Origin: Parcubacteria group bacterium Greene0416_39
GTDB lineage: Bacteria; Patescibacteriota; Minisyncoccia; Minisyncoccales; UBA10102
Length of the DNA: 64,000 bases
Direction: 5' to 3'
Assembly (NCBI GenBank): GCA_007375675.1
Contig: VMEU01000001.1
Location: 40,458 to 104,457, forward strand
Made by a program: the position numbers and the translations under genes. Of the stretch, positions 10,282-61,983 are shown in pieces. The first letter of the stretch is position 1. Each line of letters begins with the position of its first letter. The notes under the pieces are model-generated. The model saw only the letters and a program-made list of their open reading frames with translations. It did not search any database and was not told the DNA's origin.

Positions 10282-10306
10282 ACCCCGCACCATTTTTCAT
10301 ATACTT

Positions 10307-19730: not shown

Positions 19731-22700
19731 CTTCCATGCAAAAAAATCTTCTTGTACTCTCAAACAAAGAAAAGGGCGCGGTGAACGCCAGATTTTCTGA
19801 AAATGCTCTCAAGATGCTGCGCAAGCGCTATCTTGCTGTTGACGAGAAGGGAGTGCAGGAAACTGCAGCCGATATGTTTGCAAGAGTCGCAAGCGCGTTG
19901 GCAGCAGTGGAGAAAAACTACGGCAAGAAAGAACAGGATGTTAAAAAAGTCGCGCGGGATTTTTTTAACATCATGTCAACAAAAGAATACACTCCTGCGG
20001 GCCGCACGATCACCAATGGAGGAGGCGAAACCCCGGTTATTGCAAACTGCGTTGTCTTGCCTATTCATGATTCTATGGAGAGCATTTTTCAAACCCTCAA
20101 AGACGCGGCCTTGCTGCAGCAGGCAGGTTGCGGCCTTGGCTTTGATCTTTCTGAAATGCGGCCTGCTGACTTCCCTACAAGAAAATCTAGAGGGAGAGCT
20201 TCGGGTCCCGTTACTTTTTTGAAGGTGTATGACTATGCGTTTGGAACCATTAAGCAGCAGGGCAGGCACGGCGCGAATATGTCAATGATGAGGGTAGATC
20301 ACCCAGATGTTTTGGATTTTATTCATTGCAAAGAAGTGGAGGGTGAAATCCACAACTTCAACATTTCAGTCACCGTCACAGACGAGTTCATGGAACAGTT
20401 AGAGAAGAACCCCAACAAGCAGTGGTGGTGCGTATTCAATAACAAGAAATATAAGCCCAGAAAAGTGTTGCGCCATCCCAATGGGAGTGTGTACGGAACA
20501 GAGGAGGTAGATATTAGCGCAAAAGAGGTTTTTGACGAGTTGGTGAAAGGAGCGTGGACAAACGGAGAACCTGGCATTGCGTTTATTGACACGGTGAACA
20601 AAACCAATCCGCTTCCAGGTCTTGGCCCAATCGCAACGTCTAACCCGTGCGTGACAGGAGATACTCTCATACCCACTGAGCAAGGTTTTCTGACAATGGA
20701 GGAGCTCGTAGAGAGGTATGGCAAGGGCGGTGTCAAAATCGCAATCGATGTTCGTGTTCCCAAAACCATTGCCACTTCTCTTGTTGTGGAAAGTCTTATT
20801 GGCAATGGAGGAGAAGAAACAGTTCCTGTGCTGAATCTTTCGTTGTATGGAGAAGAAGGAGTGGGAGAAGTATCTAAAGCATGGAAGACAGGGGTGAAAG
20901 CAGTGTATAAGCTTACGACTCGTTCTGGCTACGAACTTGAAGCAACCGCGGAGCATGAAATTTTTACACCAAAAGGAAAGGTTCCTCTTGGGGAACTTCA
21001 GAAAGGAGATACGTTACTTCTTCAGTCGCGAGAAGGTCTTTGGAGCAACGAAGCGAAATTGCCCTTTACGTTTTCTAACGAGGTTCGAGGACGAAATGGC
21101 CACACGTATCGGTATAACTTTCCGACTGAATGGAGTCAACAGCTCGGGCAAGCCTTAGGATGGCTTATCGGAGACGGCTGGATACGAGAAAAACCAAAAC
21201 AAAACTGCGTAGGTTTTACCTTTGCAGAGGAAGATAAAAAAGTTTTACTGTATCTCAAAGAGATTTTAAACAAGTGGTATCGCAATAGCACTTCTCAAGA
21301 AATCAAAAGGCACAACGGAGTGTACCATTTAGTGTATGGTTCGAAAGATTTTATGCAATATATGAAGAACTTGGGAGTGAAAGCGGTACGTGCCCAAGGG
21401 AAAGAGGTGCCCTCTACTTTATGGAAAGCACCTAGAGAAGCAGTCATCGGATTTCTTCAGGGACTTTTTAGTTCCGACGGGACCATTAATATTTTTGAAC
21501 CAAATCAAACTCGGTATATCCGTCTCACCTCCAAGTCTGAGAAACTCCTCAAGGGAGTACAGCTCTTGCTACTGAATCTTGGCATTCGTTCAACCGTATA
21601 CAATAGAAGTAGGAAACCGAGTATGAAACTTGGATACCCCAACGACGGCGTACTCTTTGAGTTGCAGATTACGAAGACGAACATTCCGATATTCCTTAAG
21701 AAGATCGGATTTCTTGGAACCCATTACACAAAGAAAGCAGAGATACTTAGAACGTGCTCCTACTATCGAGAAACCTTTGAAGACAAGGTGAAAGAAATTC
21801 GGTTTGTTGGAACAAAGAAGGTGTATGACCTTACAGAATCCCTCTCCCATTCTTTGGTTGCAAATGGAATTGTCATATCAAATTGCGGCGAACAATATTT
21901 GCATCCGTATGACAACTGCAACTTGGGATCCATTAATCTTGCGGCATTTGTAAAACAGGGAAAAGTGGATTGGGCAAGACTCCGTTTTGTCACGAGAACC
22001 GCAACACGGCTCATGGACAATGTGATAGACGTTTTTGACTTTCCCGTAAAAGAAGTGACTGACTTAGCCAAGAATAACAGGAGGATTGGCTTGGGCATCA
22101 TGGGTTTTGCTGATATGCTCTATCAGCTTGGGGTGCGCTATGATTCCAAACAAGGATTTGCGTTAGGAGAAAAAGTTATGGGCTTTATTACTAATGAGGC
22201 CCATACAATGTCTGAGGAGTTGGCAAAAGAAAAAGGCGCATTTCCTAACATTGCAAAGAGCGTGTTTGCCAGATCCAAGAAAAAGATGCGCAACGCTGCC
22301 CTTACCACGGTTGCTCCCACAGGTTCTATCTCCATGATGTTTGACTGTTCTTCTGGCATTGAACCAAACTTTGCTCTTTCTTATGTGAAACAAGACAAAG
22401 ACGGCGTCCAATACCACTACCTTAACAAATACTTTGAGGAAGCGGTTGCCAAGTTGAAGCTTGCGGCAAAAGAAAAAGACGAGATTCTCCAGGAGGTTGT
22501 GGGAAAGGGGACCATACAGCATATTGGAAAGCTTCCAAAGGCATTGCGGGATACGTTCGTGATCTCCATGGATATTGTGGGACTTGACCATATGAAAATG
22601 CAGGCTGCGTTTCAGAAGCACGTTGATAACTCTATTTCCAAAACCGTCAACTTCCCAAATTCTGCGACCAGAGAAGATGTTGCCGGAAGTTTTGTAGCGG

Positions 22701-23377
22701 CTTGGAAGTTAGGGTGCAAATCAGCAACCGTGTATCGTGAAGGAAGCAGGGTGGTGCAGATTCTCAACCTTGGCACTGGAGAAAACCTTATTGCTCCCAC
22801 TGCGCTTGGAGTTGGGAAAGACAGCATAGAGAAACTCGACTTGCGCATGGACCAGCAACGTTTGGCCTCAAGGCCAAGGCCAGAGGTGATGACAGGCAAA
22901 ACCTACCGTGTGAAAACAGGGTACGGGAATCTATACGTTACCGTGAACAACGATGAAAAAGGAGTGCCTTTTGAGGTTTTTGCAACCATTGGGAAAAATG
23001 GAGGGTTTTTCCAGGAACAGTCAGAGGCCATATGCAGAATGATCTCTCTTGTGTTAAGAACAGGGGTAAAAATTGAAGAAGTGGTGGAGCAACTAAAGGG
23101 CATTAGAGGGCCAATGCCCATATTCACAGACAAAGGCACTATTCTTTCTCTGCCTGACGCCTTAGGCCGTATTCTTGAAGACCACGTGAAGTTTGCTCCA
23201 AGAGTGGAAGAAGCAGTTGCGAGGCCCGAGAGACAGGAAGTACTTCCTTTTATAGAAAAAAAACAGACCATTGCTGAAATGGGTTTTATGCCAGGATGCC
23301 CTGACTGCGGCTCCCCTTTACTGATGTCTGAAGGATGCATTAGCTGCAAGGAGTGCGGATTTAGCCGCTGTATGTAA
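19727..23377 (+). CDS. nrdJ: Class II (adenosylcobalamin-dependent) ribonucleotide reductase NrdJ, interrupted by an intein
   Basis: RNR catalytic motif split as ...ATSNP | intein | CGEQYLHPYDNCNLGSINL; C-terminal zinc ribbon CPDCG...CKECG; 1216 aa including a 412-aa intein. Confidence 0.9.
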   Translation: MTSMQKNLLVLSNKEKGAVNARFSENALKMLRKRYLAVDEKGVQETAADMFARVASALAAVEKNYGKKEQDVKKVARDFFNIMSTKEYTPAGRTITNGGGETPVIANCVVLPIHDSMESIFQTLKDAALLQQAGCGLGFDLSEMRPADFPTRKSRGRASGPVTFLKVYDYAFGTIKQQGRHGANMSMMRVDHPDVLDFIHCKEVEGEIHNFNISVTVTDEFMEQLEKNPNKQWWCVFNNKKYKPRKVLRHPNGSVYGTEEVDISAKEVFDELVKGAWTNGEPGIAFIDTVNKTNPLPGLGPIATSNPCVTGDTLIPTEQGFLTMEELVERYGKGGVKIAIDVRVPKTIATSLVVESLIGNGGEETVPVLNLSLYGEEGVGEVSKAWKTGVKAVYKLTTRSGYELEATAEHEIFTPKGKVPLGELQKGDTLLLQSREGLWSNEAKLPFTFSNEVRGRNGHTYRYNFPTEWSQQLGQALGWLIGDGWIREKPKQNCVGFTFAEEDKKVLLYLKEILNKWYRNSTSQEIKRHNGVYHLVYGSKDFMQYMKNLGVKAVRAQGKEVPSTLWKAPREAVIGFLQGLFSSDGTINIFEPNQTRYIRLTSKSEKLLKGVQLLLLNLGIRSTVYNRSRKPSMKLGYPNDGVLFELQITKTNIPIFLKKIGFLGTHYTKKAEILRTCSYYRETFEDKVKEIRFVGTKKVYDLTESLSHSLVANGIVISNCGEQYLHPYDNCNLGSINLAAFVKQGKVDWARLRFVTRTATRLMDNVIDVFDFPVKEVTDLAKNNRRIGLGIMGFADMLYQLGVRYDSKQGFALGEKVMGFITNEAHTMSEELAKEKGAFPNIAKSVFARSKKKMRNAALTTVAPTGSISMMFDCSSGIEPNFALSYVKQDKDGVQYHYLNKYFEEAVAKLKLAAKEKDEILQEVVGKGTIQHIGKLPKALRDTFVISMDIVGLDHMKMQAAFQKHVDNSISKTVNFPNSATREDVAGSFVAAWKLGCKSATVYREGSRVVQILNLGTGENLIAPTALGVGKDSIEKLDLRMDQQRLASRPRPEVMTGKTYRVKTGYGNLYVTVNNDEKGVPFEVFATIGKNGGFFQEQSEAICRMISLVLRTGVKIEEVVEQLKGIRGPMPIFTDKGTILSLPDALGRILEDHVKFAPRVEEAVARPERQEVLPFIEKKQTIAEMGFMPGCPDCGSPLLMSEGCISCKECGFSRCM
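20648..21883 (+). mobile_element. Intein in NrdJ with LAGLIDADG homing-endonuclease domain
   Basis: Begins Cys (CVTGDTLI, Hint block A); ends ...GIVISN with +1 Cys; two LAGLIDADG motifs LGWLIGDGWI and FLQGLFSSDGTI. In frame: 20648-19727=921 and 21884-19727=2157. Confidence 0.85.
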
Positions 23378-24029: not shown

Positions 24030-24113
24030 TAATGCAAATCCACAAATGACTGCGAATGTACAAATACGAGTATTCGCGGCATTCGCATATTATTCGTAGA
24101 TTCGCATTTTACT
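24028..24113. repeat. 85-nt quasi-palindromic intergenic element, copy 2
   Basis: Same organisation as copy 1; ATG of the downstream gene follows directly. Confidence 0.7.
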
Positions 24114-25946: not shown

Positions 25947-25969
25947 ACTTCGGCCTTCTGGCCTCAGTG

Positions 25970-26251
25970 TGCCGCGGGGGTGAATTGAACACCCGACGCC
26001 AGCCTCTTCCAAAGGCCGTTTTGGACTATCTCATCTCCCTTGAAAGGGAGTTGGGCGCTATTTGCAGGATTATTGTTGGGACTCACCCGCTAGTCTCTAC
26101 ACCTTCCGAGAAACTACTACCCTTCTCGGCTTGGCTCGGGATTGATCGTCCCAGACGATTTTTCCCCGAATTCACCCAATTTTTCAATCCGCCTTACGAC
26201 GGAAAGCCCCAAAGAGTTTAGGGCTGCGCTCTACCACTGAGCTACCGCGGC
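25970..26251 (-). tRNA. tRNA-Phe(GAA) interrupted by a 210-nt group I intron (exons 26220-26251 and 25970-26009)
   Basis: 5' exon GCCGCGGTAGCTCAGTGGTAGAGCGCAGCCCT; 3' exon GAAGAGGCTGGCGTCGGGTGTTCAATTCACCCCCGCGGCA. Joined, the anticodon loop is CTGAAGA. Confidence 0.8.
26010..26219 (-). mobile_element. Group I self-splicing intron in the tRNA-Phe anticodon loop (between nt 33 and 34)
   Basis: P1 pairs exon AGCCCU with intron GGGGCU, with U.G at the 5' splice site. P/Q/R/S-like elements AATTCGGGGAAA, AATCCCGAGC, GTGTAGAGACTAGCG, GAGATAGTCC. Terminal omega-G. No ORF inside. Confidence 0.8.
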
Positions 26252-26991: not shown

Positions 26992-27447
26992 TCAATATGG
27001 ATAACCCTGGAAGTAGTATTGCACCGCTTCCTTATAGGTATTTTCAAACTCTATACTATCAACTTCTTCTTTTGTTATCCACTTGAAAGCCTGATGTTCC
27101 GGGCTCAGCTGTATTTCTCCTTTTTGATAAGCACATTGAAAACCTACAAGGAAAATACAAAAATCGTTATCCCTGTACTGTGATTTTGTATCTTTAATAG
27201 GGTCAGGTTTTCGAATCCACGCGTGAAAGATTGGGCCAATTTCGTATTGCAGCGCCTCCCCTAATTCTTCTTTTGCTTCCCGCGCCAAGATTTCCCGCAA
27301 ATCTTTATGGATTTCTGATTTTTCCGTTCTGCCCCCAGGGAGCTCCCAAAGCCCTTCAGTATCTTGAAGGATCAAAAGTTTCTCGCCGTCTGCTATAAAG
27401 GCTTTCAGGCCGACATGGAAGGTTTGGTGTTCCCGTTTTTCTGGCAT
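26992..27447 (-). CDS. NUDIX hydrolase
   Basis: Nudix box GGRTEKSEIHKDLREILAREAKEELG. Confidence 0.8.
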   Translation of the reverse strand: MPEKREHQTFHVGLKAFIADGEKLLILQDTEGLWELPGGRTEKSEIHKDLREILAREAKEELGEALQYEIGPIFHAWIRKPDPIKDTKSQYRDNDFCIFLVGFQCAYQKGEIQLSPEHQAFKWITKEEVDSIEFENTYKEAVQYYFQGYPY

Positions 27448-28823: not shown

Positions 28824-28827
28824 ATGG

Positions 28828-28900
28828 TGGGCGTGGATGGACTCGGACCATCGACCTCGGCCTTATAAGGACCTTGCTCTGACCACTGAGCTACACGCCC
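28828..28900 (-). tRNA. tRNA-Ile(TAT) candidate (AUA decoder); anticodon arm has a 27-43 A.G mismatch
   Basis: Acceptor GGGCGTG/CACGCCC; D-arm GCTC-AGTGGTCA-GAGC; anticodon stem AGGTC/GGCCG (4 pairs), loop CTTATAA; T-arm GATGG-TCCGAGT-CCATC; CCA encoded. Confidence 0.5.
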
Positions 28901-31900
28901 CCATTATACTTTTCTTGCCAATCAACCTTTCAAACTCTTCTCGCTCCAATGTTTCCTTTTCTATCAGGGCTTTGGCTATCTTGACAAGCGTTGGCCTTTT
29001 TTGTTTCAAAACGTTCTCCGCCTTTTTTCTCGCGACTTCTACAAGGCCAGATACCTCTTTATCTATTTCTTCGGCAAGTTTTTGGGAATAGTTCACATAT
29101 TCTCCAATGTGCGCGAACGGGTGCTCCTCCCTTTCTCCAAAAGTTACGGGTCCCAGCGATTCAGACATGCCGTATTCTTTCACGAGGCGCCGTGCAAGAT
29201 CTGAAGCCTGCTGAAGATCATTGCTCGCTCCCGTGGTCACATCTTTGAATACCAACTTCTCTGCGCAGTATCCTCCAAGAAACGTTGCGAGTTCATCCAA
29301 AAATTCTGCTCTGCTCTTTAAATGTTTTTCTTCTGAAGGGAGTTTCAAAGTGTATCCTCCAGCTCTTCCTCGGGATATGATGGAAACTTTGCGCACCGGG
29401 TCTGCGTGGGGGAGCGAAGAAGCAACCAAAGCATGGCCTGCTTCATGGTACGCGGTGATCTCTTTTTCTTTTTTGGAAAGAATGTGGCTTTTCCTTTCAG
29501 GGCCCAAGAGCACCTTGTCTATGGATTCCAGAAGTTCTTCTTGGGAGACTATGGTTTTGTTGCGCCTCGCAGTAAGAATTGCTGACTCGTTCATAAGGTT
29601 GGCAAGGTCTGCCCCTGAAAATCCTGGGGTTCTCTCTGCAATTTCCCGTAAAGAGGTTTTGGGAGCCAATGGTTTGCCCAAGGAATGAATCTTGAGGATT
29701 TCTTCCCTGTCATTCACGTCAGGAAGGTCAAGAACGATTCTTCGGTCAAAGCGTCCTGGCCTCAAAAGAGCAGAATCCAACACGTCAGGGCGATTGGTAT
29801 TGTGAAGTAGGATAGGGCTTTCTCCTCCAAAGAAAGCTTCATTCTCGCAGCCACAGAAATCGTAGACGTAACCGTCATAAGGCAACTTCCTGATCGACTT
29901 CACAATCGCTCGTTTCGTGCTTGCTTTTCCGATTTTTGGATCGAGGGGATTTTGTGTTTTCCCAAATCCAAGCCGATATGCCTTGGTTTCTTGGAGTGGC
30001 TTCCCATCCCTAATTTTTCTTCCCGCTTTCACCGTAAATTCACGAATATAGCTTTTGAATCCGTGCATTCGAGAAAGCCAGTTTAATCCAAGGATTAGAC
30101 GCTTGCTTACCGAAGTAAGCTCGAGGCGTCCTCGTGTATCGGTGTAACCGTCTCCTGCTGCATATCCTTTGAGAAATTCAGTGTAGTATTCCTTTGGAGC
30201 TTCAAAAAGGAACTGGGGCACCTGTTTATTTTTTGCGCCTTTCCCACAGTGAAACGCAAGGAAGCTTGCGACAGGCTTGCAGTGGTACACAATATTTATG
30301 GCGTTTTTGGTAATATGACGTTCCCGATCTGGTTCAAGGTGAAAGATGGTTTTCATCAGATATCTCACGTCTTCTATGTATTCCTTTTCCTTCTCATTGA
30401 AACAAAAATCGAGTTCTTTCCTGGCATAACCCTCGGCGGTATAGTATCCAAAAAGCCTCATCAATTCTGGGCTTACTTCCACTGTTTCTGGAAGTTGATC
30501 TTTATATTGGTAGTAATTCCTACTTAGCGCTCGCGGCACACAAATACCCTGTTGCCATTTTCCAATAGTTCTTTGAGAGAACCCCAGCATATTGCCAAGC
30601 TCTGTTTGCGACGTTTCTCCCTCATGAGTACGAGCAAATTGATACGCATACTCTACTGACTGAAAAGGCATAAAGAGTGGTTCCCATAGCTGGAGTTGGA
30701 GCTCGAGTTTCTGGCTAAACTTATGGCCCCGTATTTCTCTCCTGTTTTTATTGGTGCGATTTACTTTATATGGAAGATCTACAAGAATGTCCCCTGGTTT
30801 AATTTCACATACAGGTTTTGGAACCAGCCCTTGAGCATTCGTTCGTATAAATACAGAGTGATTCCCAGTAGTTCTGATAGTTCCTCCCATATATTCTACT
30901 TCGTAAATCTCCTGTACTTTGTGACGGAATACGCTCCGCACTTTCTTAAATGCGCTGTTCTGGAGATACGTCTTTTTTTGCGCAGAAAATCCTTTTCCAA
31001 TTTTCTTTTCAAACCCAAGCACCTCTAATCTTTGCGACGGTTTTTCTACTCCTTCTTCGCCCTCTTGATAGTAGGGGTCTATGACTTGATCGATAGGAAG
31101 AAGCTTATCCTCCCCATTTTCTCGAATTAGTACAGGAGTATCACCGGTAACGCTTGCACCCATCACTATGCGTTGATCGTCTCGCTCAAAGCCGTCCATT
31201 TCCACTAAGATTTGGTTTAAGGTTTGTTCTCGTTCCTCGTGTCCGCCCGTGAATCCAGAGCCCCTCGTGCGGCCAATGGCGTCTAATTCGTCAATAAAGA
31301 TAATGCTTCTCCCAGCCCTTTTTGCAGTAGAAAAGAGATCCCGAACTCTCGAGCTTCCCACACCCACGAACATTTCCACGAATTCAGAACCTGAAGCAGA
31401 AAAGAATGCGACTCCAGCTTCGTTGGCCACAGCTCTTGCCAACAGGGTTTTCCCTGTGCCGGGCGCCCCTACCAAAAGCACTCCTCTTGGGATGCGAGCT
31501 CCCATGTCTAGATACTTTTTTGGGTTCTTCAAAAAATCCACTACTTCCTGGAGCTCTTCTTTTGCTTCTTTGAGACCTGCAACGTCTTTGAACGTGACTT
31601 TTTCTTTTGTCTGGCCGTCTGCTCCAAATAACCTGGCGCGAGACTTTGTGAACTCAAACGCCTGCCCGAGTCCAGCTCTTGCCTGGCGGAACATCATCAA
31701 AAAGAAGAACACGAAAAAGAGCATGGGAAGAATCACAAACAGAAAAGGCGAAATCCAGGCCCCAATGCCGCCTTCCTTTCTCTGCTCAATTGTTACATTG
31801 TTTAATTGTTCTTTATCAACTCCTAAGTTGAGAAGCGTTTGGGAAAGAGAGGAATCAGACTCTTTGAGAGCAGCAACTTCAGAGCCGTCTTCCAAAGTTA

Positions 31901-32081
31901 CCTTGAGCGCAGTCCCCTCAAGAACAATGCTTTTGGTATTCCCCTTGTTGATGTCTTGCACAAGCTCGCTCAAGGAGATCTGCTTTTGAGCTTCAAACGG
32001 CCGTGCAAAAAGCGAAAACAGCGCCGAGAGCACCAGGAGCGCCACAAACGCAACAAGAAGGTTTTTAGAAAAGTTTTTCAT
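28863..32081 (-). CDS. ftsH: ATP-dependent zinc metalloprotease FtsH, interrupted by a 452-aa intein
   Basis: N-terminal TM; Walker [16 protein letters not shown]; Walker [10 protein letters not shown]; sensor-1 region split as IVMGA | intein | TNRPDVLD; protease HEAGHALVA. 3' end overlaps the tRNA at 28828-28900. Confidence 0.9.
29799..31154 (-). mobile_element. Intein in the FtsH AAA module (Ser1 ... Asn, +1 Thr) with degenerate LAGLIDADG-like endonuclease region
   Basis: [15 protein letters not shown] start; ...[10 protein letters not shown]|TNRPD end; [14 protein letters not shown] and [13 protein letters not shown] motifs; 1356 nt, in frame. Without it FtsH is ~620 aa. Confidence 0.8.
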
Positions 32082-35242: not shown

Positions 35243-35896
35243 ATGCAGATATTTTGGAAAGGCCAGGCGTGCTTTCAGATTCTCACATCCCGCGGCAAAG
35301 ACAGCCAGCTTTCAATTGTTGTTGATCCTTACGAGGAATCCATTGGGTTAAAACTTCCAAGCCTTCAGGCCGACATTCTTTTGGTTACGCACAATCATTT
35401 CGACCACAACAATGCAAAAGACGTGAAAGGATCCCCCTTTGTCATTTCAAATCCAGGAGAGTATGACGTGAAAGGCGTGTTCGTGCAAGGGATCTTTTCA
35501 TTTCATGACGATACCCAAGGCAAAGAAAGAGGCAGTAACACCATATACCGTATAGAAGTTGAGGGCATGAGGATTTGTCATTTGGGCGATTTGGGCCAAA
35601 AAGAGCTTACCCAAGAACAGCTCAACCAAATAGGTGATGTGGACATTTTGTTTGTTCCAGTAGGGGGCGTGTATACCATAGACGGCAAAGAAGCTGCGCG
35701 CATTGTAAGCCAGCTTGAGCCAAAGATTGTTATCCCCATGCACTATGCATTGCCAAAGCTCAAGGTGAAGCTTGAAGGCGTGGAAGAGTTTCTCAAACCC
35801 ATGGGAGCAAAAAATGCAGTGGCTGAACCCAAACTCCTAGTGAAAGAACGTGATCTTGTGAATGAAGAAAGGAGAGTGGTGGTCTTGACGCCATGA
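35243..35896 (+). CDS. MBL-fold metal-dependent hydrolase (UPF0173/YtkL-like)
   Basis: LLVTHNHFDHNN metallo-beta-lactamase motif; 217 aa. Confidence 0.75.
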   Translation: MQIFWKGQACFQILTSRGKDSQLSIVVDPYEESIGLKLPSLQADILLVTHNHFDHNNAKDVKGSPFVISNPGEYDVKGVFVQGIFSFHDDTQGKERGSNTIYRIEVEGMRICHLGDLGQKELTQEQLNQIGDVDILFVPVGGVYTIDGKEAARIVSQLEPKIVIPMHYALPKLKVKLEGVEEFLKPMGAKNAVAEPKLLVKERDLVNEERRVVVLTP

Positions 35897-38800
35897 TCAA
35901 AGAAAACAAACCGAGCGCCATAGGCAAGGTTGAGCCAAGAGAAATTGTGCAGGAGATGAAAACTGCGTATTTAGATTACGCAATGTCTGTTATTGTTGCA
36001 AGAGCTTTGCCTGACGTAAGAGATGGATTAAAACCAGTTCACCGGAGAATTCTGTACGCAATGTACGAAATGGGGTTGACCCACGGAGCGAAATTAAGAA
36101 AATCAGCTGGCGTGGTAGGAGAAGTGCTTGGAAAGTACCATCCTCACGGAGACATTTCCGTGTACGACGCTTTGGTTCGCATGGCCCAAGATTTTTCCAT
36201 GCGCTACCCCTTAATAGACGGCCAAGGAAATTTTGGTTGTTTCACAAAAGATACCGAAATCCAACTGACCGATGGGAGAGCCCTCTCTTTTGGACAACTA
36301 ATTGAGGAACAGAAAAAAGGGGAAAGGCATTGGACCTTCTCATTTAATCAAAAAGAAGAAAAAATTGAGATAGCGGAAATTAAGCGTCCCCGCCTGACGA
36401 GAGAAAACGCAGAATTAGTGGAGGTGGTGCTTGATAACGGAGCACAAATTCGATGTACCCCAGATCATCGATTTATGCTTCAAAACGGAACATACCAGGA
36501 AGCCCGTTATCTTTCTCAGGGGGATTTTTTGATGTCGATGCTGGAATATACAAAAAACAAAACATCCGCTTTTGAGGCGGAAGTTTTGGGAGTCGCAGAT
36601 AGTACCGGTGCTTCGGAGTTGTCGTCTATTCCTATACTAGCAAACCAAGCAGTTCTGTCAAGTGTGTCCACGGAGCCGTGGACGGCACGGGAATTGCACC
36701 CGTCGACTTCTGGACGACAACTCCGAAGCCGGGACTACCCGCCGCCCACGGCCCCTCTATTATACCTACGAAAAGTAGAATGTATCAAGGTGAACAATGT
36801 AAGATTCCTTGAAGAAAAGACAGATGTGTACGACATCACAGTAGATCCTTGGCATAACTTTGCACTTGCAGCAGGTATTTTTGTTCACAACTCAATTGAC
36901 GATGACCCTGCGGCGGCAATGCGTTATACGGAAAGCCGCATGTCTCGGGCAGGGGAAGAACTGCTCGAAGACATTGAGAAAAATACCGTTGACTTCATTG
37001 ATACATACGACGGAATGAGGCAAGAACCCAAGGTTCTTCCTTCTCCTTTGCCCCAACTTTTGTTGAACGGCACCTTGGGAATCGCGGTGGGAATGGCAAC
37101 CAACATTCCTCCGCATAACTTAGCAGAGGTTGCAGACGCAGTAGCCTTCCTTATTGAAAATCCCAAGGCAGACACCGAAGATTTATTTCAATTTATCAAG
37201 GGGCCGGATTTCCCGACTGGCGGAACCATTTTTAACAAACAAGAAATGATTGCGGGCTACTCACAGGGCAAAGGCCCTATTGTGGTGCGAGGCAAAGCAG
37301 AAGTGGTGGAGAATGACAAGAAGAATCAGATCATCATTAGCGAGATTCCTTTCCAGGTGACCAAGTCTACTCTTGTGGAACAGTTTGCAAACCTTGTGCA
37401 GGAAAAGAAAATTGAGGGAATTAGAGACATCCGCGACGAGTCAGACAAAGACGGCATGCGAATTGTGTTTGACCTTGCAAGAGAAGCCCAGCCCCAGAAA
37501 ATTTTAAACCGGCTCTACAAATTTTCAGACCTGCAAAAAACATTTCACTTAAACCTTCTTGCCTTGGTAGACGGCATTCAGCCCAAGGTTCTTTCTTTGG
37601 CTGAAATCCTTCTGCTTTTTCTTGAGCACAGAAGGAATGTGGTTTCAAGGAGAACCCAGTGGGAGTTAGACAGAGCCAAAGAGAGAGCGCATATCTTAGA
37701 AGGCCTTGTAAAATGTCTTGGCAGCATTGACGAAGTTATTAAAATTATCAGACGGTCAGATGACCGGGACGACGCCAAAAAGAACCTCATGGCGCGCTTT
37801 AAGCTTACTGAAATCCAGGCAAACGCAATCCTAGACACAAAGCTTAGCCAACTGGCAAAGCTTGAGCGAAAGAAAATAGAAGAAGAATTAGTTGCGCTGA
37901 AAGCAACAATCAAAGAACTAACCTTAATTCTTGCAAACCCCAAGGAAATTGACCGCATCATTGCAAAAGAACTTGAGGTCGCCAAGGCAGCCTATGGAGA
38001 CCAGAGGAGAACCAAAGTGGTGGTGCAGGGCCTTGGCGAAATTGCAGAAGAAGATTTAATCCCCCAGGAAGACACGGTCATCACCTTAACCCAGGGAGGG
38101 TACATTAAGCGTATTAATCCCGCCACCTACAAAATTCAAAAGAGAGGAGGAAAGGGCATTGTGGGCATGAAAACCATGGGGGAAGACATTGTAGAGCACT
38201 TCCTGTATGGCCAGACCCACGACTCTTTAATGGTGTTTACCGATTCAGGCAAGGTGTTTCAAATACCCGTGTATGAAGTCGCAGAGGGAACAAGGGTTTC
38301 TAAGGGCAGAGGTCTTCTCAACTTTATTGACCTTACTCCTCAAGACAAGGTATTGACCCTTTTTGCCATTGGCAAAGAAGACATTGTGGCTGGCAAAAAA
38401 TATCTGGCCATGATTACCAAAGACGGAATAATGAAAAAAACCCTTTTGGACGACTTCAAAAACGTGCGGCGTTCAGGACTTATTGCAGTAACCCTTAAAA
38501 AGGGAGATCGTCTGCAGGGAGCGCAAAAAACCACTGGCGAAGACGATATCATTATTGTGACAAAACACGGCAAATCCATTCGCTTCAAAGAATCGCAGGT
38601 GAGAGCAATGGGAAGGCAGGCCGCAGGAATCCACGCCATACGCCTCAAAAAAGGGGATGAGGTTATGGGGATGGACATTATCCCTGGTTTGCCGTCGCGA
38701 CTCTTTATACTTTCAGAAAATGGGTATGGGAAAAGCACTGACGTGAAAGAATACCGGATACAGAGCAGGGGAGGGTCTGGAATCAAAACCGCAAACGTTA

Positions 38801-38994
38801 CCTCAAAAACAGGCAATCTCGTGTTTGCCAAAGTTCTTGAGGGCCCAGAAGAAGACTTAATCGTGATTTCAAGAAAAGGCCAGGTAATACGAACTCCTGT
38901 TACGTCTATTCCTAAGATAAGCCGCTCCACGCAAGGCGTGCGTTTCATGAGGCTTGATGAGGGAGACAAGGTTGTGTCGGCCGCTTGCATGTAA
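35893..38994 (+). CDS. gyrA: DNA gyrase subunit A, interrupted by a 218-aa mini-intein
   Basis: RALPDVRDGLKPVHRRILYAM; GQGNFG | intein | SIDDDPAAAMRYTES; C-terminal beta-pinwheel repeats; 815 aa without the intein. Confidence 0.9.
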   Translation: MIKENKPSAIGKVEPREIVQEMKTAYLDYAMSVIVARALPDVRDGLKPVHRRILYAMYEMGLTHGAKLRKSAGVVGEVLGKYHPHGDISVYDALVRMAQDFSMRYPLIDGQGNFGCFTKDTEIQLTDGRALSFGQLIEEQKKGERHWTFSFNQKEEKIEIAEIKRPRLTRENAELVEVVLDNGAQIRCTPDHRFMLQNGTYQEARYLSQGDFLMSMLEYTKNKTSAFEAEVLGVADSTGASELSSIPILANQAVLSSVSTEPWTARELHPSTSGRQLRSRDYPPPTAPLLYLRKVECIKVNNVRFLEEKTDVYDITVDPWHNFALAAGIFVHNSIDDDPAAAMRYTESRMSRAGEELLEDIEKNTVDFIDTYDGMRQEPKVLPSPLPQLLLNGTLGIAVGMATNIPPHNLAEVADAVAFLIENPKADTEDLFQFIKGPDFPTGGTIFNKQEMIAGYSQGKGPIVVRGKAEVVENDKKNQIIISEIPFQVTKSTLVEQFANLVQEKKIEGIRDIRDESDKDGMRIVFDLAREAQPQKILNRLYKFSDLQKTFHLNLLALVDGIQPKVLSLAEILLLFLEHRRNVVSRRTQWELDRAKERAHILEGLVKCLGSIDEVIKIIRRSDDRDDAKKNLMARFKLTEIQANAILDTKLSQLAKLERKKIEEELVALKATIKELTLILANPKEIDRIIAKELEVAKAAYGDQRRTKVVVQGLGEIAEEDLIPQEDTVITLTQGGYIKRINPATYKIQKRGGKGIVGMKTMGEDIVEHFLYGQTHDSLMVFTDSGKVFQIPVYEVAEGTRVSKGRGLLNFIDLTPQDKVLTLFAIGKEDIVAGKKYLAMITKDGIMKKTLLDDFKNVRRSGLIAVTLKKGDRLQGAQKTTGEDDIIIVTKHGKSIRFKESQVRAMGRQAAGIHAIRLKKGDEVMGMDIIPGLPSRLFILSENGYGKSTDVKEYRIQSRGGSGIKTANVTSKTGNLVFAKVLEGPEEDLIVISRKGQVIRTPVTSIPKISRSTQGVRFMRLDEGDKVVSAACM
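36238..36891 (+). mobile_element. Mini-intein in GyrA (no endonuclease domain), inserted between GQGNFG and SIDDDP
   Basis: CFTKDTEIQLTDGR (block A) ... FALAAGIFVHN|S (blocks F/G); in frame (345 and 990 nt from the CDS start); low-complexity linker in the middle. Confidence 0.8.
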
Positions 38995-49504: not shown

Positions 49505-51592
49505 TTATTCAAGGTGGAGTTTTGCTCGGAGCTCTTGGATTTTTTGTTTGAGCAGAGGATATTTTTTGAGAGCAATGTCTTCGTCAAGAATCTTTGTAGC
49601 TGCGTCCCTTGTTTCTTGCACGAGCTCAAGGTTGGTGAGCTGGGTCATTGCAAAGTCTGGAATGCCCCACTGTTTGGTTCCTGCAAAATCGCCAGGGCCT
49701 CGGATTTTCAGGTCTTGTTCGGCTAACTCAAATCCGCTGTCTAACTGCTCCAAGGCCTTGAGGCGCGCCCTTGCATTTGGGGAGTTTGATTCTGCAAACA
49801 GCAGGCAATACGATTGATGTTCTGCTCTGCCAACTCTGCCTCGAAATTGGTGGAGCTGGGCTAAACCAAATCGATCTGCTCCTTCAATCATCATCACAGC
49901 GGCGTTTGGAATATCAACTCCAACCTCCACAACAGACGTTGAGACTAAAATATCTGTTTTGCCTTGCCTGAACTTCTTCATCACCTCCTCTTTTTCTCTG
50001 GAGCTCAGCTTCCCGTGGAGCATGCCAACGCGCAGGTCGGGGAATACCTCTTTGGAAAGTTTTTCATACTCTTCTTTTACTGTTTTTATGTCTTCTCCTT
50101 CTGCCGTGTGCTCGGTCCTCTCAATGCGAGGACAAATCACAAACACCTGCCTTCCTTTTTGTACTTGCTTAGCAATAAACCCGTACGCGCTTTTCCTTGC
50201 AGAAGGAGGAACTACTTTTGTGATTATCTTTTTTCTCCCCTCAGGGAGTTCTTTAATAAGCGTGAGGTCTAAGTCTCCATATAGAGTAAGAGCAAGAGTT
50301 CTTGGGATTGGAGTTGCAGTCATTGATAAGAGGTGGGGGATGAGAACTGAACGACGAAGAAGCTTGGCCCGCTGCTTGATTCCAAAGCGGTGCTGCTCGT
50401 CAACCACCAAAAGGCCCAGGTTCTCAAACTTCACTTTATCTTCAATCAAGGCATGGGTGCCAATAAGAATATCAATGTCTCCTTCCAAGGTTTTTTTGAG
50501 AAGTCGGGCTCTTGAGATTTCAATCACATCATTGGGAAGTTTGGGGGAGACAAACCGGTCTGCGCTCCCTGTAAGCAAGCCAATCGTAACCTTAAACTTT
50601 TGGAGGATTTCACTCACTGTTTTAAAATGCTGTTTTGCAAGAATTTCCGTTGGAGACAGAAAGGCAACCTGCAGCCCTGCCTTCATTGCTCCAAGGGCTG
50701 CCATTGTAGCAACTATTGTTTTGCCAGAGCCTACGTCTCCTTGGAGCAACCGGTTCATGGGCCTTGGTTTTTCCAAGTCTTTCAAGATAACCCAGGCAGC
50801 TTTTTTTTGGGAGTCTGTTAACTGGAAAGGCAAAGAATTGGTGAGGCGCTTCATGAGAGGCGGATCAAAGGGTATGGCAGGAGCTTTCACCTCTGCTATT
50901 TTTTTGCGTTCCGCGAGAACAAAGAGAAGAATATAAAAAAGTTCTTCAAATGCAAAGCGTTTTGCGGCGGTATCTGCGCTCTCCATAGAATTTGGGAAAT
51001 GGATTTGCCACAAGGCCTGCTTTACAGGAAGGAAGCGTTTCTCTCTTACAATTGATTCTGGGAGCGTTTCTGGAATCTCTGATATTGTTGCCAACACCCG
51101 TTTGATAATAGTTCTTAGCCATCGTGAAGAAAGCCCTCTTGTTTCAGGGTACACAGGAATTATTCTTCCCACATGGGTGAGTGAGGAACGGTCTTTCTCA
51201 TGAGATGGGTTGACAAACGCAATCCCGTCTTTATCTCGTGTGACTTTTCCTGCGACAAGGACGACGTCACCATTAGTAAAGTATTCTGCAAGATACGGTT
51301 GGCTGAACCACACTATTCTCAAGGATCCTGTTGCATCTTTGAGTATTGCAGATGTGAGAGAGAACCGTTTTTTGAACGTCTGAGTCTTTTTAAGGTTTGT
51401 CAGTTCTCCCTTCACGCAATACGTTCCTCCCTCTTTAATGTCTGAAATCTTGGTGATGCGAGAGAAATCTACATAGGTGCGGGGGAAGTAAAACAAAAGA
51501 TCTCGTACATTTGCAATGCCGAGCTTCTTTAATTTCTGGGAGAATGAGGGCCCTACGCCCAAAACTTCAGAGAGGGGAGTTGAGAATGTCAT
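49505..51592 (-). CDS. recG: ATP-dependent DNA helicase RecG
   Basis: Wedge domain; Walker A GDVGSGKTIVA; DEAH-like VVDEQHRFG; 695 aa. Confidence 0.85.
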   Translation of the reverse strand: MTFSTPLSEVLGVGPSFSQKLKKLGIANVRDLLFYFPRTYVDFSRITKISDIKEGGTYCVKGELTNLKKTQTFKKRFSLTSAILKDATGSLRIVWFSQPYLAEYFTNGDVVLVAGKVTRDKDGIAFVNPSHEKDRSSLTHVGRIIPVYPETRGLSSRWLRTIIKRVLATISEIPETLPESIVREKRFLPVKQALWQIHFPNSMESADTAAKRFAFEELFYILLFVLAERKKIAEVKAPAIPFDPPLMKRLTNSLPFQLTDSQKKAAWVILKDLEKPRPMNRLLQGDVGSGKTIVATMAALGAMKAGLQVAFLSPTEILAKQHFKTVSEILQKFKVTIGLLTGSADRFVSPKLPNDVIEISRARLLKKTLEGDIDILIGTHALIEDKVKFENLGLLVVDEQHRFGIKQRAKLLRRSVLIPHLLSMTATPIPRTLALTLYGDLDLTLIKELPEGRKKIITKVVPPSARKSAYGFIAKQVQKGRQVFVICPRIERTEHTAEGEDIKTVKEEYEKLSKEVFPDLRVGMLHGKLSSREKEEVMKKFRQGKTDILVSTSVVEVGVDIPNAAVMMIEGADRFGLAQLHQFRGRVGRAEHQSYCLLFAESNSPNARARLKALEQLDSGFELAEQDLKIRGPGDFAGTKQWGIPDFAMTQLTNLELVQETRDAATKILDEDIALKKYPLLKQKIQELRAKLHLE

Positions 51593-51617
51593 GGTTTACA
51601 CTGAGCTTGTCGAAGTG

Positions 51618-51829
51618 TGTCCCCATGTGGAATCGAACCACAATTTTAGCCTTCGCCCCGCACCGTTTCTGTGCGTCCACGAGGAATCGAACCTCGATTT
51701 CAGCCTTCGCAGGGCTGCGCTCTATCCGTTGAGCTATGAACGCATAAAGGTGCGGGGCAGGCAGGGCTATTTACCCCGTACCGAGCTTTGCTCTGGTACG
51801 GGGCGCTCTATCCGTTGAGCTATGGGGAC
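51618..51829 (-). tRNA. Split/outer tRNA-like gene: acceptor + D-arm + 5' anticodon stem (51797-51829) and 3' anticodon stem + T-arm + acceptor (51618-51660) separated by ~140 nt that contain a complete tRNA
   Basis: 5' part GTCCCCATAGCTCAACGGATAGAGCGCCCCG; 3' part CGGGGCGAAGGCTAAAATTGTGGTTCGATTCCACATGGGGACA. Acceptor halves GTCCCCA/TGGGGAC and anticodon-stem halves CCCCG/CGGGG are perfectly complementary. The 5' part resembles the tRNA-Arg genes at 14772 and 15868. Confidence 0.45.
51672..51743 (-). tRNA. tRNA-Arg(GCG) (unusual anticodon), nested inside the split tRNA-like gene
   Basis: Acceptor GCGTTCA/TGGACGC; D-arm GCTC-AACGGATA-GAGC; anticodon stem CAGCC/GGCTG, loop CTGCGAA; T-arm CGAGG-TTCGATT-CCTCG. 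Confidence 0.65.
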
Positions 51830-51901
51830 GTACATTTTTTATAGCATACAACGCGACCCGTTGGTATAGGCAAGTTTGTATGCTTGTGATAGTATGGAGG
51901 T

Positions 51902-52906
51902 ATGGCTGAAATGGTAAATTCTAAAAGGGCAAAGTTCCCTAGAGGGCTACAAAGAAGGTTCATTCAGAAAGTTCTCATAAACCTTTCTTTTGAGAAAGTC
52001 GCAGGTCTTTGTGGAGTTTCTCAGCGTACCATAAGAGATTGGCGCCGCGAAAAGTTTTTAATGGATTTTAGTGCCGTCAAGGTATTATGCAACAGAGCAA
52101 AGCTGCCATTCCCGCAACATATCAAGCTCAAGGATCGTTATTGGTATACTTCAAAAGGAGCCAAGTATGGCTGGAGTTTGGTGCTCAAAAAATATGGGAG
52201 GATTCCTTTAGATGAAGAGTATCGTAAAGAGAAATGGTATGAATGGTGGGAACGGGAGGGAAGGTATAAAAGGCATCCTATCATAAACGTTTCCAAACCA
52301 ATCCGAAAACCCGCTTTTTCCAAGGAGCTTGCCGAATTTGTAGGTATTGTGTTAGGTGATGGTGGCATAAGTAAAAGGCAGATTACGGTATCTTTACACA
52401 GTATCGATGACAAAGAATATTCACATTATGTTTCTGCATTAATCAAAAAGCTTTTCCTTGTTCCTGTTTCAATTCGTCCAGATAAAAACGCTAAAGTTGT
52501 AGATCTTGTTATTTCTCGTACGGAGTTGATACGTTTCTGTACCCAGACATTAGGCTTACGAATCGGCAACAAAGTAAAACAGCAAGTAGATGTTCCTCAT
52601 TGGATTAAACACAATAAGAGCTATATTCTTGCCTGCACCAGGGGACTTGTTGATACCGATGGTTCCGTATATCTTCACAGATACAAGGTAAATGGGAAGT
52701 GGTATACGTATTCAAAACTTTCGTTTTCTAATCGTTCCATGCCACTTCTTCAGTTTGTGCTTTGTACCTTTAAAACGCTTGGCATGAATCCTCGTTTAAC
52801 CAAGTATAACGAGGCCGTACGTTTAGAAAGTAAAAACGACATGAAATCATATTTTGGTTTAATAGGAACTCATAACCCGAAATATTTGAAGAAATACAGG
52901 AATTAG
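51902..52906 (+). CDS. Free-standing LAGLIDADG homing endonuclease (two motifs)
   Basis: FVGIVLGDGGISKRQ and ACTRGLVDTDGSVYLH LAGLIDADG motifs; 334 aa; divergent from the nested tRNA locus 70 nt away. Confidence 0.75.
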   Translation: MAEMVNSKRAKFPRGLQRRFIQKVLINLSFEKVAGLCGVSQRTIRDWRREKFLMDFSAVKVLCNRAKLPFPQHIKLKDRYWYTSKGAKYGWSLVLKKYGRIPLDEEYRKEKWYEWWEREGRYKRHPIINVSKPIRKPAFSKELAEFVGIVLGDGGISKRQITVSLHSIDDKEYSHYVSALIKKLFLVPVSIRPDKNAKVVDLVISRTELIRFCTQTLGLRIGNKVKQQVDVPHWIKHNKSYILACTRGLVDTDGSVYLHRYKVNGKWYTYSKLSFSNRSMPLLQFVLCTFKTLGMNPRLTKYNEAVRLESKNDMKSYFGLIGTHNPKYLKKYRN

Positions 52907-60690: not shown

Positions 60691-60777
60691 CATAATGCAA
60701 ATCCGCAAATGACTGCGAATGTACAAATACGAGTATTCGCGGCATTCGCATAGTATTTGTAAATTCGCATTATATGT
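60690..60777. repeat. 85-nt quasi-palindromic intergenic element, copy 4
   Basis: Fills the pilT stop to pilC start gap exactly; same orientation as copies 1 and 2. Confidence 0.7.
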
Positions 60778-61983
60778 ATGAAGTTTAACTATCAGGCAAG
60801 AGACGCAAAGGGACAGACTCAAATAGGCCAAGTGGAGGCTTCTTCGCAAGACGCTGCCTTGGAGGTTCTTTCAAGGAGCAGCCTGTATGTCACGCTCCTG
60901 GAAGAAGCTGCAAAAAAACCCGTCTACGCCAAGCGCATTTCGTTTTTTGAAAAGGTTTCTGTAAAAGACGTGATGTTGTTTTCCCGCCAGCTTGCCATTA
61001 TGTTCAAGTCGCAGGTTTCGCTTTTGGAAGCGCTGAGAACCTTAGCCGTGCAAACCAAAAACCAGAGCTTTAAAGAAAAGATTTTTGATATGGCAGAGCA
61101 GGTGGAGGCCGGCACCCCTTTGTCCCAGGCCTTAGCTTTGCATTCAGCAATTTTCTCCCCATTTTATATTGCCATGGCAAAATCAGGCGAGGCTTCCGGA
61201 ACTCTTGCCAAATCTTTGGAGTATTTAGCAGACCATCTTTCTCGAGAGTATGAGTTGACGAGCAGGGTGAGGGGAGCGTTAGTGTACCCGGCGTTTGTTG
61301 TCGCGGTCGCGTTCCTGGTGCTGTTTTTAATGATGTTCTTTGTGATCCCCAACATGACCAAGGTGTTAGAGGGTCTGGGCCAGCAGCTCCCTCTGTTAAC
61401 AAGAATTGTCATATCCACGGCCGATTTTCTGCGCAGCAAGTGGTGGCTTCTCTTACTGCTCCTTGCCTTATCGGGAACCTTTTTGTTTAGGTACGTGAGA
61501 ACGCCAGAAGGCAAAAGATTTTTGAATTCTGCGTTTTTGAGTTTTCCGCTTCTGGGTCCTCTGCTTTCTATGGTGTATCTTGCGAGGTTTGCAGAGAACC
61601 TTTCCACTCTTGTGGCTGGCGGCATTCCTATTGTGCAGGCTTTAGATATTACAGGGTCTGTGGTGGGGAATACCGTGTACCGCAAGATCATTTCTGAAGC
61701 GCGAGACGAAGTGAAAAAGGGGAGGAATATAAGCGAGGTTTTGCAAAGGCATCCCAAAGAGTTTCCGCCCTTGTTCACGCAGATGGTGCTCGTTGGGGAG
61801 AAGTCTGGAACATTAGATACGAGCCTTCTCAATATTGTGGAGTTCTATCAAAAAGAGGTTGCCAGAACCGTTGACAGCTTCCTCTCTTTGATAGAGCCTA
61901 TGTTAATTGTTGTGCTTGGGCTCATGATTGGAGGGCTCATGGCGTCAGTTCTTCTGCCCTTGTATCAGATTTCCGCGCTCTAA
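60778..61983 (+). CDS. pilC: PilC/GspF platform protein, paralog 2
   Basis: 401 aa, two GspF repeats, 3 TM. Confidence 0.85.
   Translation: MKFNYQARDAKGQTQIGQVEASSQDAALEVLSRSSLYVTLLEEAAKKPVYAKRISFFEKVSVKDVMLFSRQLAIMFKSQVSLLEALRTLAVQTKNQSFKEKIFDMAEQVEAGTPLSQALALHSAIFSPFYIAMAKSGEASGTLAKSLEYLADHLSREYELTSRVRGALVYPAFVVAVAFLVLFLMMFFVIPNMTKVLEGLGQQLPLLTRIVISTADFLRSKWWLLLLLLALSGTFLFRYVRTPEGKRFLNSAFLSFPLLGPLLSMVYLARFAENLSTLVAGGIPIVQALDITGSVVGNTVYRKIISEARDEVKKGRNISEVLQRHPKEFPPLFTQMVLVGEKSGTLDTSLLNIVEFYQKEVARTVDSFLSLIEPMLIVVLGLMIGGLMASVLLPLYQISAL

Follow-up and report, generated by a model that had tools for sequence, protein, structure and literature searches.

A tRNA-Arg(GCG) gene interrupted by two short helix-bounded insertions, one of which carries a complete tRNA-Arg(GCG), in a Wildermuthbacteria-like bacterium

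Here we describe a tRNA-Arg(GCG) gene that lies in three pieces, with a second, complete tRNA-Arg(GCG) inside it, in a 64,000-nt stretch of DNA (hereafter the window) from Parcubacteria group bacterium Greene0416_39. All coordinates are positions in this window; the locus occupies 51618–51829 of the minus strand, and its host is an ultra-small, Wildermuthbacteria-like bacterium of the candidate phyla radiation (CPR) with bacterial RecG, TsaD and type IV pilus genes. A re-parse by homology showed that the outer gene is a paralogue of the inner one and that it is broken by two insertions of 34 and 106 nt (140 nt together), which leave exons of 26, 8–9 and 38 nt. We think it reasonably probable that this arrangement arose from a self-compensating disruption at the DNA level, in which the inner tRNA would be the working gene, driven by the promoter of the old gene and freed by RNase P and RNase Z, with the outer gene as a fresh relic. 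The gene structure is rare and apparently undescribed, as we found no description of it in the literature.

The first piece of the outer gene (51804–51829, minus strand) covers tRNA positions 1–26, with the 5′ acceptor strand GTCCCCA, the D-arm and G26. It is a 100% match to positions 1–26 of the intact tRNA of L097, one of the loci that we fetched from relatives and metagenomic contigs and that carry L-numbers here, and upstream of it lies the AAAAAATGTA region that also adjoins the single tRNA of relatives. The second piece (51762–51769, minus strand), TAGCCCTG, corresponds to positions 27–34, the 5′ anticodon stem and the start of the loop, with a boundary that shifts by 1 nt in either direction. 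This piece is needed to obtain the L097 sequence and matches it exactly. In the minimum-energy fold of the whole precursor it pairs with GGCTA at 51647–51651, and the outer anticodon stem is made of TAGCC (51769–51765) and this GGCTA (51651–51647). A middle exon of 8–9 nt in the correct order between the outer pieces is expected by chance with a probability of about 5e-4 (4^-9 x ~130 possible positions). The third piece (51618–51655, minus strand) comprises positions 35–72 and the discriminator, namely CGAA, the 3′ anticodon stem GGCTA, AAAT, the T-arm TGTGG/CCACA, the acceptor strand TGGGGAC and a final A. It is the sole genuine orphan T-arm in the window, the region 51656–51617 is a 100% match to L097 positions 34–73, and the recG leader follows it as in L082. 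Once both insertions are removed, the joined exons (GAGCG-TAGCCCTG-CGAAGGCTAAAATTGTGG) give a perfect 72-nt tRNA-Arg(GCG).

Insertion 1 (51770–51803, minus strand, 34 nt) lies between tRNA positions 26 and 27 and is missing from the intact allele L097. It forms the hairpin CCCCGTACC-A-GAGC-AAA-GCTC-GGTACGGGG followed by TAAA, so that the sequence between its arms is AGAGCAAAGCTC and its full layout CCCCGTACC-AGAGCAAAGCTC-GGTACGGGG-TAAA. Reconstruction of the junctions showed that its boundaries are unique; its inverted repeat is complementary at 9 of 9 positions, and it folds with −23 kcal/mol (z=−7.0). Insertion 2 (51656–51761, minus strand, 106 nt) sits in the outer anticodon loop, where placements at 33/34, 34/35 and 35/36 are equivalent. 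It consists of CCTG, the arm CCCCGCACC, TTTAT, the inner tRNA, CAGAAAC and the arm GGTGCGGGG, contains no open reading frame (ORF), and folds into a 9–12 bp stem bearing a cloverleaf (−48.3 kcal/mol, z=−4.6). The tRNA accounts for 72 of its 106 nt. At neither junction of insertion 2 is a tRNA re-formed, and the outer gene stays interrupted.

The inner tRNA-Arg(GCG) (51672–51743, minus strand, 72 nt) has the acceptor stem GCGTTCA/TGGACGC and the sequence pattern GCGTTCA...CGAGG...TGGACGCA. It was called Arg(GCG) by ARAGORN and reached 68.9 bits with Rfam RF00005 (threshold 29), while the outer gene, which offers no contiguous cloverleaf, gave no tRNA call in place with ARAGORN or Rfam. The reconstructed outer tRNA and the inner tRNA are collinear and identical at 59 of 72 positions, and the 13 differences all fall in stems, where pairing is kept. 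A repeat finder recovered the same relationship, with identical D-arms (22/22) and 80% identity over the 3′ 41 nt. CCA is encoded by neither copy. Folded as a whole, the 212-nt unit forms one cloverleaf nested in another (−108.8 kcal/mol, z=−8.4).

The locus had been singled out in a reading of the letters without database searches (the sequence-only reading), which proposed one tRNA interrupted in its anticodon loop by some 140 nt holding a complete tRNA. All the sequence blocks that it quoted are found on the minus strand of 51618–51829, and the inner 72-nt tRNA is confirmed by the calls given above. Its assignment of the acceptor strands GTCCCCA/TGGGGAC, the D-arm and the T-arm TGTGG-TTCGATT-CCACA to one tRNA was upheld by the L097 matches at 51829–51804 (100%, E=1e-8) and 51656–51617 (100%, E=5e-17). 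The interrupted tRNA with a tRNA inside is thus borne out, but the single insertion is really two, at 26/27 and in the anticodon loop. The outer anticodon stem proposed there, CCCCG/CGGGG, had to be abandoned: CCCCG is the start of the left arm of insertion 1 and CGGGG the end of the right arm of insertion 2. Likewise there is no 13-nt variable region, as paralogy with the inner tRNA shows that GCGAAGGCT, which lies within the 41-nt repeat, is the anticodon, AA and the 3′ anticodon stem. Because the flanking halves are paralogues of the inner tRNA, this parse is wrong, and the L097 allele rules it out as well.

The 309-nt spacer between recG and a neighbouring LAGLIDADG ORF is identical in two ENA assemblies and in a Logan assembly of a different run, and the adjacent gene is present on 7 contigs. 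The data are metagenomic and strain-level indels occur elsewhere on the contig, so one could imagine that two tRNA-Arg alleles of coexisting strains were mis-joined into a nested chimera. We give this next to no credence, since base-for-base identity in three independent assemblies rules out an assembly artefact, and perfect inverted arms with an 8-nt middle exon are unlike the products of mis-assembly.

The outer gene is the resident of the site. The gene order tRNA-Ser(GCT), tRNA-Arg(GCG), recG is conserved in relatives, and a single uninterrupted tRNA-Arg(GCG) stands at the site in every one examined, about 50 in all, including those with 91% and 88% RecG identity. A degenerate 3′-half pattern run against metagenomes yielded 23 tRNA-Arg(GCG) genes, each of them contiguous, L097 being one. 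The ends of the outer gene abut flanks common to L081, L082 and L092, and its acceptor stem GTCCCCA/TGGGGAC equals that of the orthologues in L001, L005, L007, L008 and L011 (L003 is one position off). From these shared flanks and this acceptor stem it follows that the outer gene is resident and the interruption derived, and the comparison of loci indicates that the interruption is confined to one species-level lineage. Across about 1 Mb of fetched related loci, no other split tRNA with both halves retained was found. The sequence-only reading had named unrelated outer halves, with no contiguous ancestral tRNA, as the outcome that would speak against it; instead L097, from another metagenome, carries an uninterrupted tRNA, directly upstream of recG, that is identical to the reconstructed outer tRNA at 72 of 72 positions (68.7 bits, Rfam tRNA), and the comparison with related genomes that it called for gave a contiguous gene throughout. 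It had also considered the GCG anticodon unusual for Bacteria, an impression that does not hold at this locus, where 48 of 48 tRNA-Arg genes in relatives are GCG and none is ACG (835 kb of fetched loci, chosen around the locus).

Alleles at this site do not track genome relatedness. L097, with 66% RecG identity, matches the outer allele at 72/72 positions, L081 (91% RecG identity) at only 47/72 and L082 (88%) at 48/72, and L092 (88%) combines an outer-type acceptor stem with an inner-type body. Positions 7–66 of the inner tRNA are identical to the resident tRNA of L092. Because of this lack of correspondence, alleles seem to have been exchanged or recombined often, and the sequences suggest frequent allele replacement or recombination at the recG-proximal tRNA-Arg site. 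In a further locus, L090 (10284–10833), we observed a tRNA-Arg(GCG) followed by three serial 3′-end tRNA remnants and a type III restriction-modification island, which is the classic footprint of repeated integrase-mediated insertions at tRNA-Arg.

Both insertions are bounded by a 9-bp inverted repeat, CCCCGYACC/GGTRCGGGG, and their arms differ by one compensatory pair, T-A versus C-G. A third helix-bounded copy occurs at 10283–10346 (no strand assigned), where CCCCGCACC and GGTGCGGGG enclose 46 nt of AT-rich DNA and the arms extend to 15 bp; it folds with −25 to −31 kcal/mol (z about −7) and is present in both NCBI strains. This copy lies exactly between the points where one pilin-like gene stops and its neighbour starts, and it has TGAA as a direct repeat on either side. 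Deletion of the copy and of one TGAA in silico yields an ATGA stop/start overlap, and the following ATGAAAAAAGGCTTT encodes MKKGF... (MKKGFTLIEL) like other pilin starts. The upstream pilin-like gene keeps its TGA stop from the left TGAA, and both genes are intact despite the insertion; at 10345–10347 the downstream gene apparently begins with a GTG codon, made up of the G that closes the arm and a following TG, where the reconstruction has ATG. The third copy leaves the pilin genes on both sides intact and has a clean direct repeat of 4 bp at its ends, and in this it behaves like a DNA insertion.

The window has three examples of the helix pair, against zero in 645 kb from relatives; L081 and L082 lack it as well, and about 19 kb of extra flank from the source contig holds no further copies. 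Perfect 9-bp terminal inverted repeats are present in 3 of 3 copies, reaching 12–15 bp in copies 2 and 3. Two of three copies in one 72-bp gene would be expected by chance with a probability of about 2e-6 (3 x (72/83000)^2), from which the tRNA-Arg gene appears to be a preferred target or source. Several other candidates for the family were set aside. An apparent fourth copy at 7675/7760 is a chance match inside a PilC-like coding sequence; a 9-mer within recG (51476–51484) is probably also due to chance, and occurs once in L082 too, at a site judged to be the equivalent recG coding position. The strain-polymorphic indels belong to a different repeat or to coding sequence, and the empty pilin site that we sought in L081 is too diverged to inform.

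Related junctions were found in other metagenomes. In L088 (plus strand, ~1–400) a tRNA-Arg 5′ half stops at position 35 (TTGC) and is followed by TTGCCCCGTAAT... and by a complete tRNA-Arg(GCG); the comparable junction of the window reads CTGC|CTGCCCCGCACC. In L091 (plus strand, ~1700–1830), CCCCGCACC stands between a 5′ tRNA fragment and, after it, a complete tRNA-Arg(GCG). The two contigs are unrelated, yet share the junction motif (Y)TGCCCCGYA / CCCCGCACC, and in both the complete tRNA differs from the remnant. The old 3′ half was not seen downstream in either, within the contigs, and since only the 5′ remnant is kept the old gene is clearly lost there. Convergent with the complete tRNA of L088 lies a decayed recombinase zinc-ribbon fragment (PF13408, E=2e-5). 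As a lead to a serine recombinase it was rejected, its sole homologue being another decayed fragment with no tRNA nearby. Phage and viral searches with the locus, the 3′-half pattern and an arm-plus-tRNA pattern gave no matches.

The resident tRNA-Arg gene is interrupted by two members of a small, lineage-specific insertion family with a 9-bp inverted repeat, one of which would have destroyed an essential CGY-decoding tRNA gene and supplied a replacement with the same anticodon. Insertion 2 probably came before insertion 1, because it brings the spare copy and insertion 1 would then have met a dispensable gene. The 212-nt unit would be transcribed from the promoter of the resident gene, as the inner tRNA has no detectable promoter of its own and is preceded by just some 60 nt of GC-rich hairpin DNA; a simple scan for promoters and terminators found nothing. 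The transcript is predicted to fold as a cloverleaf in a cloverleaf, from which RNase P together with RNase Z or exonucleases would free the inner tRNA as the functional CGY decoder. Bacterial polycistronic tRNA processing provides an established basis for such a release. CCA would be added after release, since neither copy encodes it. The three outer pieces would remain leader and trailer RNA that is not rejoined, and the outer gene would be a recently inactivated relic. The sequence-only reading had offered a tRNA gene disrupted by an insertion as one of its two options, and it is this option that we favour.

Its other option was an intron, and here our results were negative. No match to the group I intron family RF00028 was obtained over 51560–51900, either at the gathering threshold or at E<=10, while in the same scan the genuine tRNA-Phe intron of the window at 26000–26229 scored 64.6 bits. 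With no core signal, and with 72 of the 106 nt of insertion 2 being tRNA, a group I intron was rejected for the insertions. At the 33/34 boundary insertion 2 reads U|G...G|G, and no complementary guide sequence was found. For every splice pair that regenerates a tRNA, the bulge-helix-bulge (BHB) motif has at most 3 of 4 central pairs and no flanking exon helix, and a BHB intron was ruled out by hand analysis and script. Precomputed Pfam annotations of about 83 kb (the window plus 19 kb of flank) include no splicing endonuclease (EndA) and no RtcB-type ligase. On these points a DNA-level insertion is a better reading than an intron of known type, although none of them amounts to proof that the outer RNA stays unjoined.

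An intron of a new type has to be weighed separately. The outer tRNA could still be functional if a protein-dependent pathway recognised the 9-bp helix, removed both insertions and ligated the three exons, which would make this a new class of bacterial tRNA intron and one that releases its hosted tRNA. The outer stems are all intact and the exons identical to a bona fide allele, a strong helix joins the ends of each insertion as in archaeal and rRNA intervening sequences, and the arms show one compensatory change; moreover, insertion 2 lies at 33/34–35/36, where Patescibacteria tRNA introns sit, in a phylum of unusual intron richness (PMC13011429). Against this, there is no group I core and no BHB for a tRNA-regenerating splice, and genes of the EndA or RtcB type were not found in the sequence available. 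The same helix stands between two protein genes, where splicing is unneeded. The three-piece arrangement is limited to one species-level lineage, L088 and L091 keep a 5′ remnant only, and nothing requires the outer tRNA, the inner anticodon being the same. We therefore consider continued splicing of the outer tRNA quite improbable. Its fuller form, in which outer tRNA-Arg(GCG) is still made by a new bacterial protein-dependent pathway acting on the CCCCGYACC/GGTRCGGGG helix, as a third class of bacterial intron, and the helix of the pilin operon is an RNA-processing site, seems to us a shade less probable still.

Known disrupted tRNAs offer partial parallels. The group I introns that Patescibacteria carry within their tRNA genes average 257 bp and have a ribozyme core detected by Rfam (Nakagawa et al. 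2026, PMC13011429); they belong to the same phylum, occupy the anticodon loop at 33/34–35/36 and likewise make genes escape standard tRNA finders. In contrast, insertion 2 is 106 nt long with no RF00028 match and insertion 1 lies outside the anticodon loop. Archaea have multiple-intron and split tRNAs, and a mobile-element model was proposed for the tRNA-Thr of Caldiarchaeum (Sugahara et al. 2012, PMC3293823). Our locus resembles them in its three-piece gene with insertions at the non-canonical 26/27 and in the anticodon loop, and L088 and L091, which keep a 5′ tRNA fragment beside a new copy, resemble the outcome of mobile-element integration in the Caldiarchaeum model. However, the archaeal genes need a BHB cut by the splicing endonuclease, while the window shows no BHB and its host is bacterial. 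In the literature we found no archaeal tRNA with a complete tRNA inside an intron of its own isoacceptor.

A closer precedent for a compensating tRNA is tRNA-dependent lysogeny in actinobacteriophages (Guerrero-Bustamante & Hatfull 2024, PMC10865867). As there, DNA is inserted into a tRNA gene without rebuilding it, and a tRNA, here the tRNA-Arg(GCG) within insertion 2, is carried by the incoming DNA. The phage element, a prophage of ~50 kb, brings a tyrosine integrase and attP arm sites, shares an 8–10 bp common core, and keeps its tRNA in another part of the phage (PMC10865867), whereas the insert in the window measures 106 bp, has no integrase, is filled by its tRNA and depends on transcription of the disrupted gene. 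A second, cargo-less hairpin insertion 8–9 nt away is a further difference. No recombinase was found near the locus, and only L088 has a decayed fragment of one.

The precedent leads to another explanation, that insertion 2 is the stub (attL, tRNA, attR) of a much larger phage or island with a serine or tyrosine recombinase, which entered the anticodon loop without restoring the tRNA, carried its own tRNA-Arg(GCG) and later lost all that lay between this tRNA and its far end, the arms being element-side half-sites. This mechanism is documented in actinobacteriophages; the L088 junction falls at the same anticodon position beside the PF13408 fragment, and tRNA-Arg(GCG) is an integration hot-spot in the clade, as the remnants and island of L090 show. 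Inverted repeats are also what one sees in the element-side half-sites of recombinase att sites, and both junctions have a 2-nt GC in common. Yet the palindrome formed by the joined ends is not centred on the shared GC, no recombinase is present in the window or flanks, the L088 fragment leads only to another decayed one without a tRNA, and no phage or viral match was obtained. Neither the cargo-less 34-nt hairpin of insertion 1 nor copy 3, with 64 nt and a 4-bp direct repeat, is explained. We regard the stub as unlikely, if better placed than the splicing readings.

Returning to the disruption by small insertions, the helix-bounded units could be non-autonomous elements resembling REPINs (repetitive extragenic palindromic doublets forming hairpins) or miniature inverted-repeat transposable elements (MITEs), or else stubs of a deleted larger integrative element. 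The units recall REPINs and MITEs in that short inverted arms form a hairpin around a spacer that varies, the genome has several copies, the arms show a compensatory change, and the intergenic copy is flanked by a direct repeat of 4 bp. They differ in that only three copies are known, without a shared interior and with inconsistent target duplications, and in that no RAYT (REP-associated tyrosine transposase) or other transposase was found in the 83 kb. To our knowledge, no REPIN or MITE carries a whole tRNA gene or sits in a tRNA gene. Our literature search likewise turned up neither such a case nor any other precedent for nested tRNAs or for MITEs in tRNA genes. Copy 3 and the compensatory change in the arms suit a REPIN/MITE-like element, L088 and the shared GC a deleted integrative element; neither suits all junctions.

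A number of observations weigh against the favoured disruption. The junctions follow no one rule: TGAA is repeated around copy 3, insertion 2 shows an overlap of just 2 nt (GC) and insertion 1 shows nothing. Single-rule models (a 4-bp target duplication, a serine-recombinase dinucleotide, an IS200/IS605-type target) were each discarded because none fits all three copies. The copies have nothing but their arms in common (one encloses a 12-nt loop, another a tRNA and the third 46 nt of AT-rich DNA), and this is atypical for MITEs. No mobilising enzyme, neither transposase nor integrase, is annotated by precomputed Pfam in the approximately 83 kb inspected. A conserved ORF upstream of tRNA-Arg in 11 metagenome loci was considered as a mobility gene and dismissed, since by its sequence it reads as a small membrane protein with two transmembrane segments. 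L088 and L091 show the left arm only. The tRNA of L092 is an apparent chimera, and allele history is more tangled than a resident plus an incomer. Finally, the outer pieces are undecayed, with perfect stems and exons equal to the L097 allele even though L097 has 66% RecG identity. Such perfect exons fit a very recent event, but the main caveat is that they would fit as well if the outer tRNA were still under selection.

It could also be supposed that no mobile element took part, and that template switching at hairpins or repair of a homing-endonuclease break duplicated the resident tRNA inside itself, after which the copies diverged. The inner body is indeed identical to the resident tRNA of L092, the D-arm and loops of both copies are identical, and homing-type elements abound in this genome, with a group I intron, three inteins and a LAGLIDADG ORF. 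The same 9-mer arm, however, recurs at the unrelated pilin locus and at the L091 tRNA-Arg junction, so that the arms did not arise as a local by-product; the outer allele equals L097 at 72/72 positions, which leaves no divergence in place; and homologues of the LAGLIDADG ORF adjoin intact tRNA-Arg genes. Nesting in situ is in our view very unlikely.

This ORF, which encodes a helix-turn-helix (HTH) and a LAGLIDADG domain (51902–52906, plus strand; LAGLIDADG_3 E=7e-8), is real, as the sequence-only reading had stated, and so is the group I intron in tRNA-Phe. The same reading had linked the ORF to mobile-intron activity at tRNA loci, a link that we could not sustain for the tRNA-Arg locus. Its family has more than 1,300 homologues in Parcubacteria, many on contigs of ~1.2 kb. 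In L113, L114, L116, L117 and the window the ORF ends 12–30 nt upstream of tRNA-Ser(GCT), and in L112, L113 and L114 it faces an intact tRNA-Arg(GCG), with no correlation to interruption. The LAGLIDADG gene was accordingly rejected as the driver, its homologues being tied to tRNA-Ser(GCT) with an intact tRNA-Arg as neighbour. The PaaX-like gene that L081 has in this place is not related to it. The ORF may encode a homing endonuclease that is free-standing and site-specific, or else a domesticated regulator, with a tie to tRNA-Ser(GCT).

A few further observations concern other parts of the window and one other contig. The tRNA-Phe(GAA) with a 210-nt group I intron in its anticodon loop (25969–26251, minus strand; Rfam match 26000–26229, RF00028 64.6 bits; ARAGORN intron at position 33) lies 23 nt from tRNA-Gly(GCC) and fits the published Patescibacteria pattern. 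In another CPR contig, L105 (4182–4632), ARAGORN reported a tRNA-Gly(GCC) with a 359-nt intron, probably another group I intron. Inteins are annotated by precomputed Pfam in three essential genes, those of ribonucleotide reductase (19727–23377, plus strand; Intein_splicing and LAGLIDADG_3), FtsH (28863–32081, minus strand; Intein_splicing and a faint LAGLIDADG_3) and GyrA (35893–38994, plus strand; Intein_splicing). The density of selfish elements is high for a small genome. With its 3′ end the FtsH ORF, whose stop lies at 28863, overlaps on the same strand a tRNA-Ile with the anticodon TAT (UAU; 28825–28900, minus strand, ARAGORN) that stands beside tRNA-Val(GAC); this anticodon is uncommon in bacteria. 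A second intergenic repeat family (...AATGTACAAATACGAGTATTCGCGGCATTCGCATA...), rich in ATTCGCA, has two copies at 24030–24110 and 60700–60780 (plus strand), both with strain-polymorphic indels of ~22–27 nt relative to GCA_007378945.1. Also absent from that strain are 55 nt (27375–27429) with which the window begins a NUDIX ORF just downstream of tRNA-Val(TAC), and as 55 is not a multiple of three the start of the gene differs between the strains.

For annotation, the locus shows that tRNA finders give the inner gene only and miss the three-piece shell around it, and that a reading of the sequence by itself invites a false intron call. Were the outer tRNA spliced after all, the view that tRNA introns in bacteria are all self-splicing would be overturned, and the archaeal multi-intron tRNAs would have a bacterial counterpart. 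If the favoured reading is true, the locus would be the smallest known self-compensating disruption of an essential tRNA gene, at about 100 bp, and a snapshot of tRNA allele exchange at a fixed chromosomal site in CPR bacteria.

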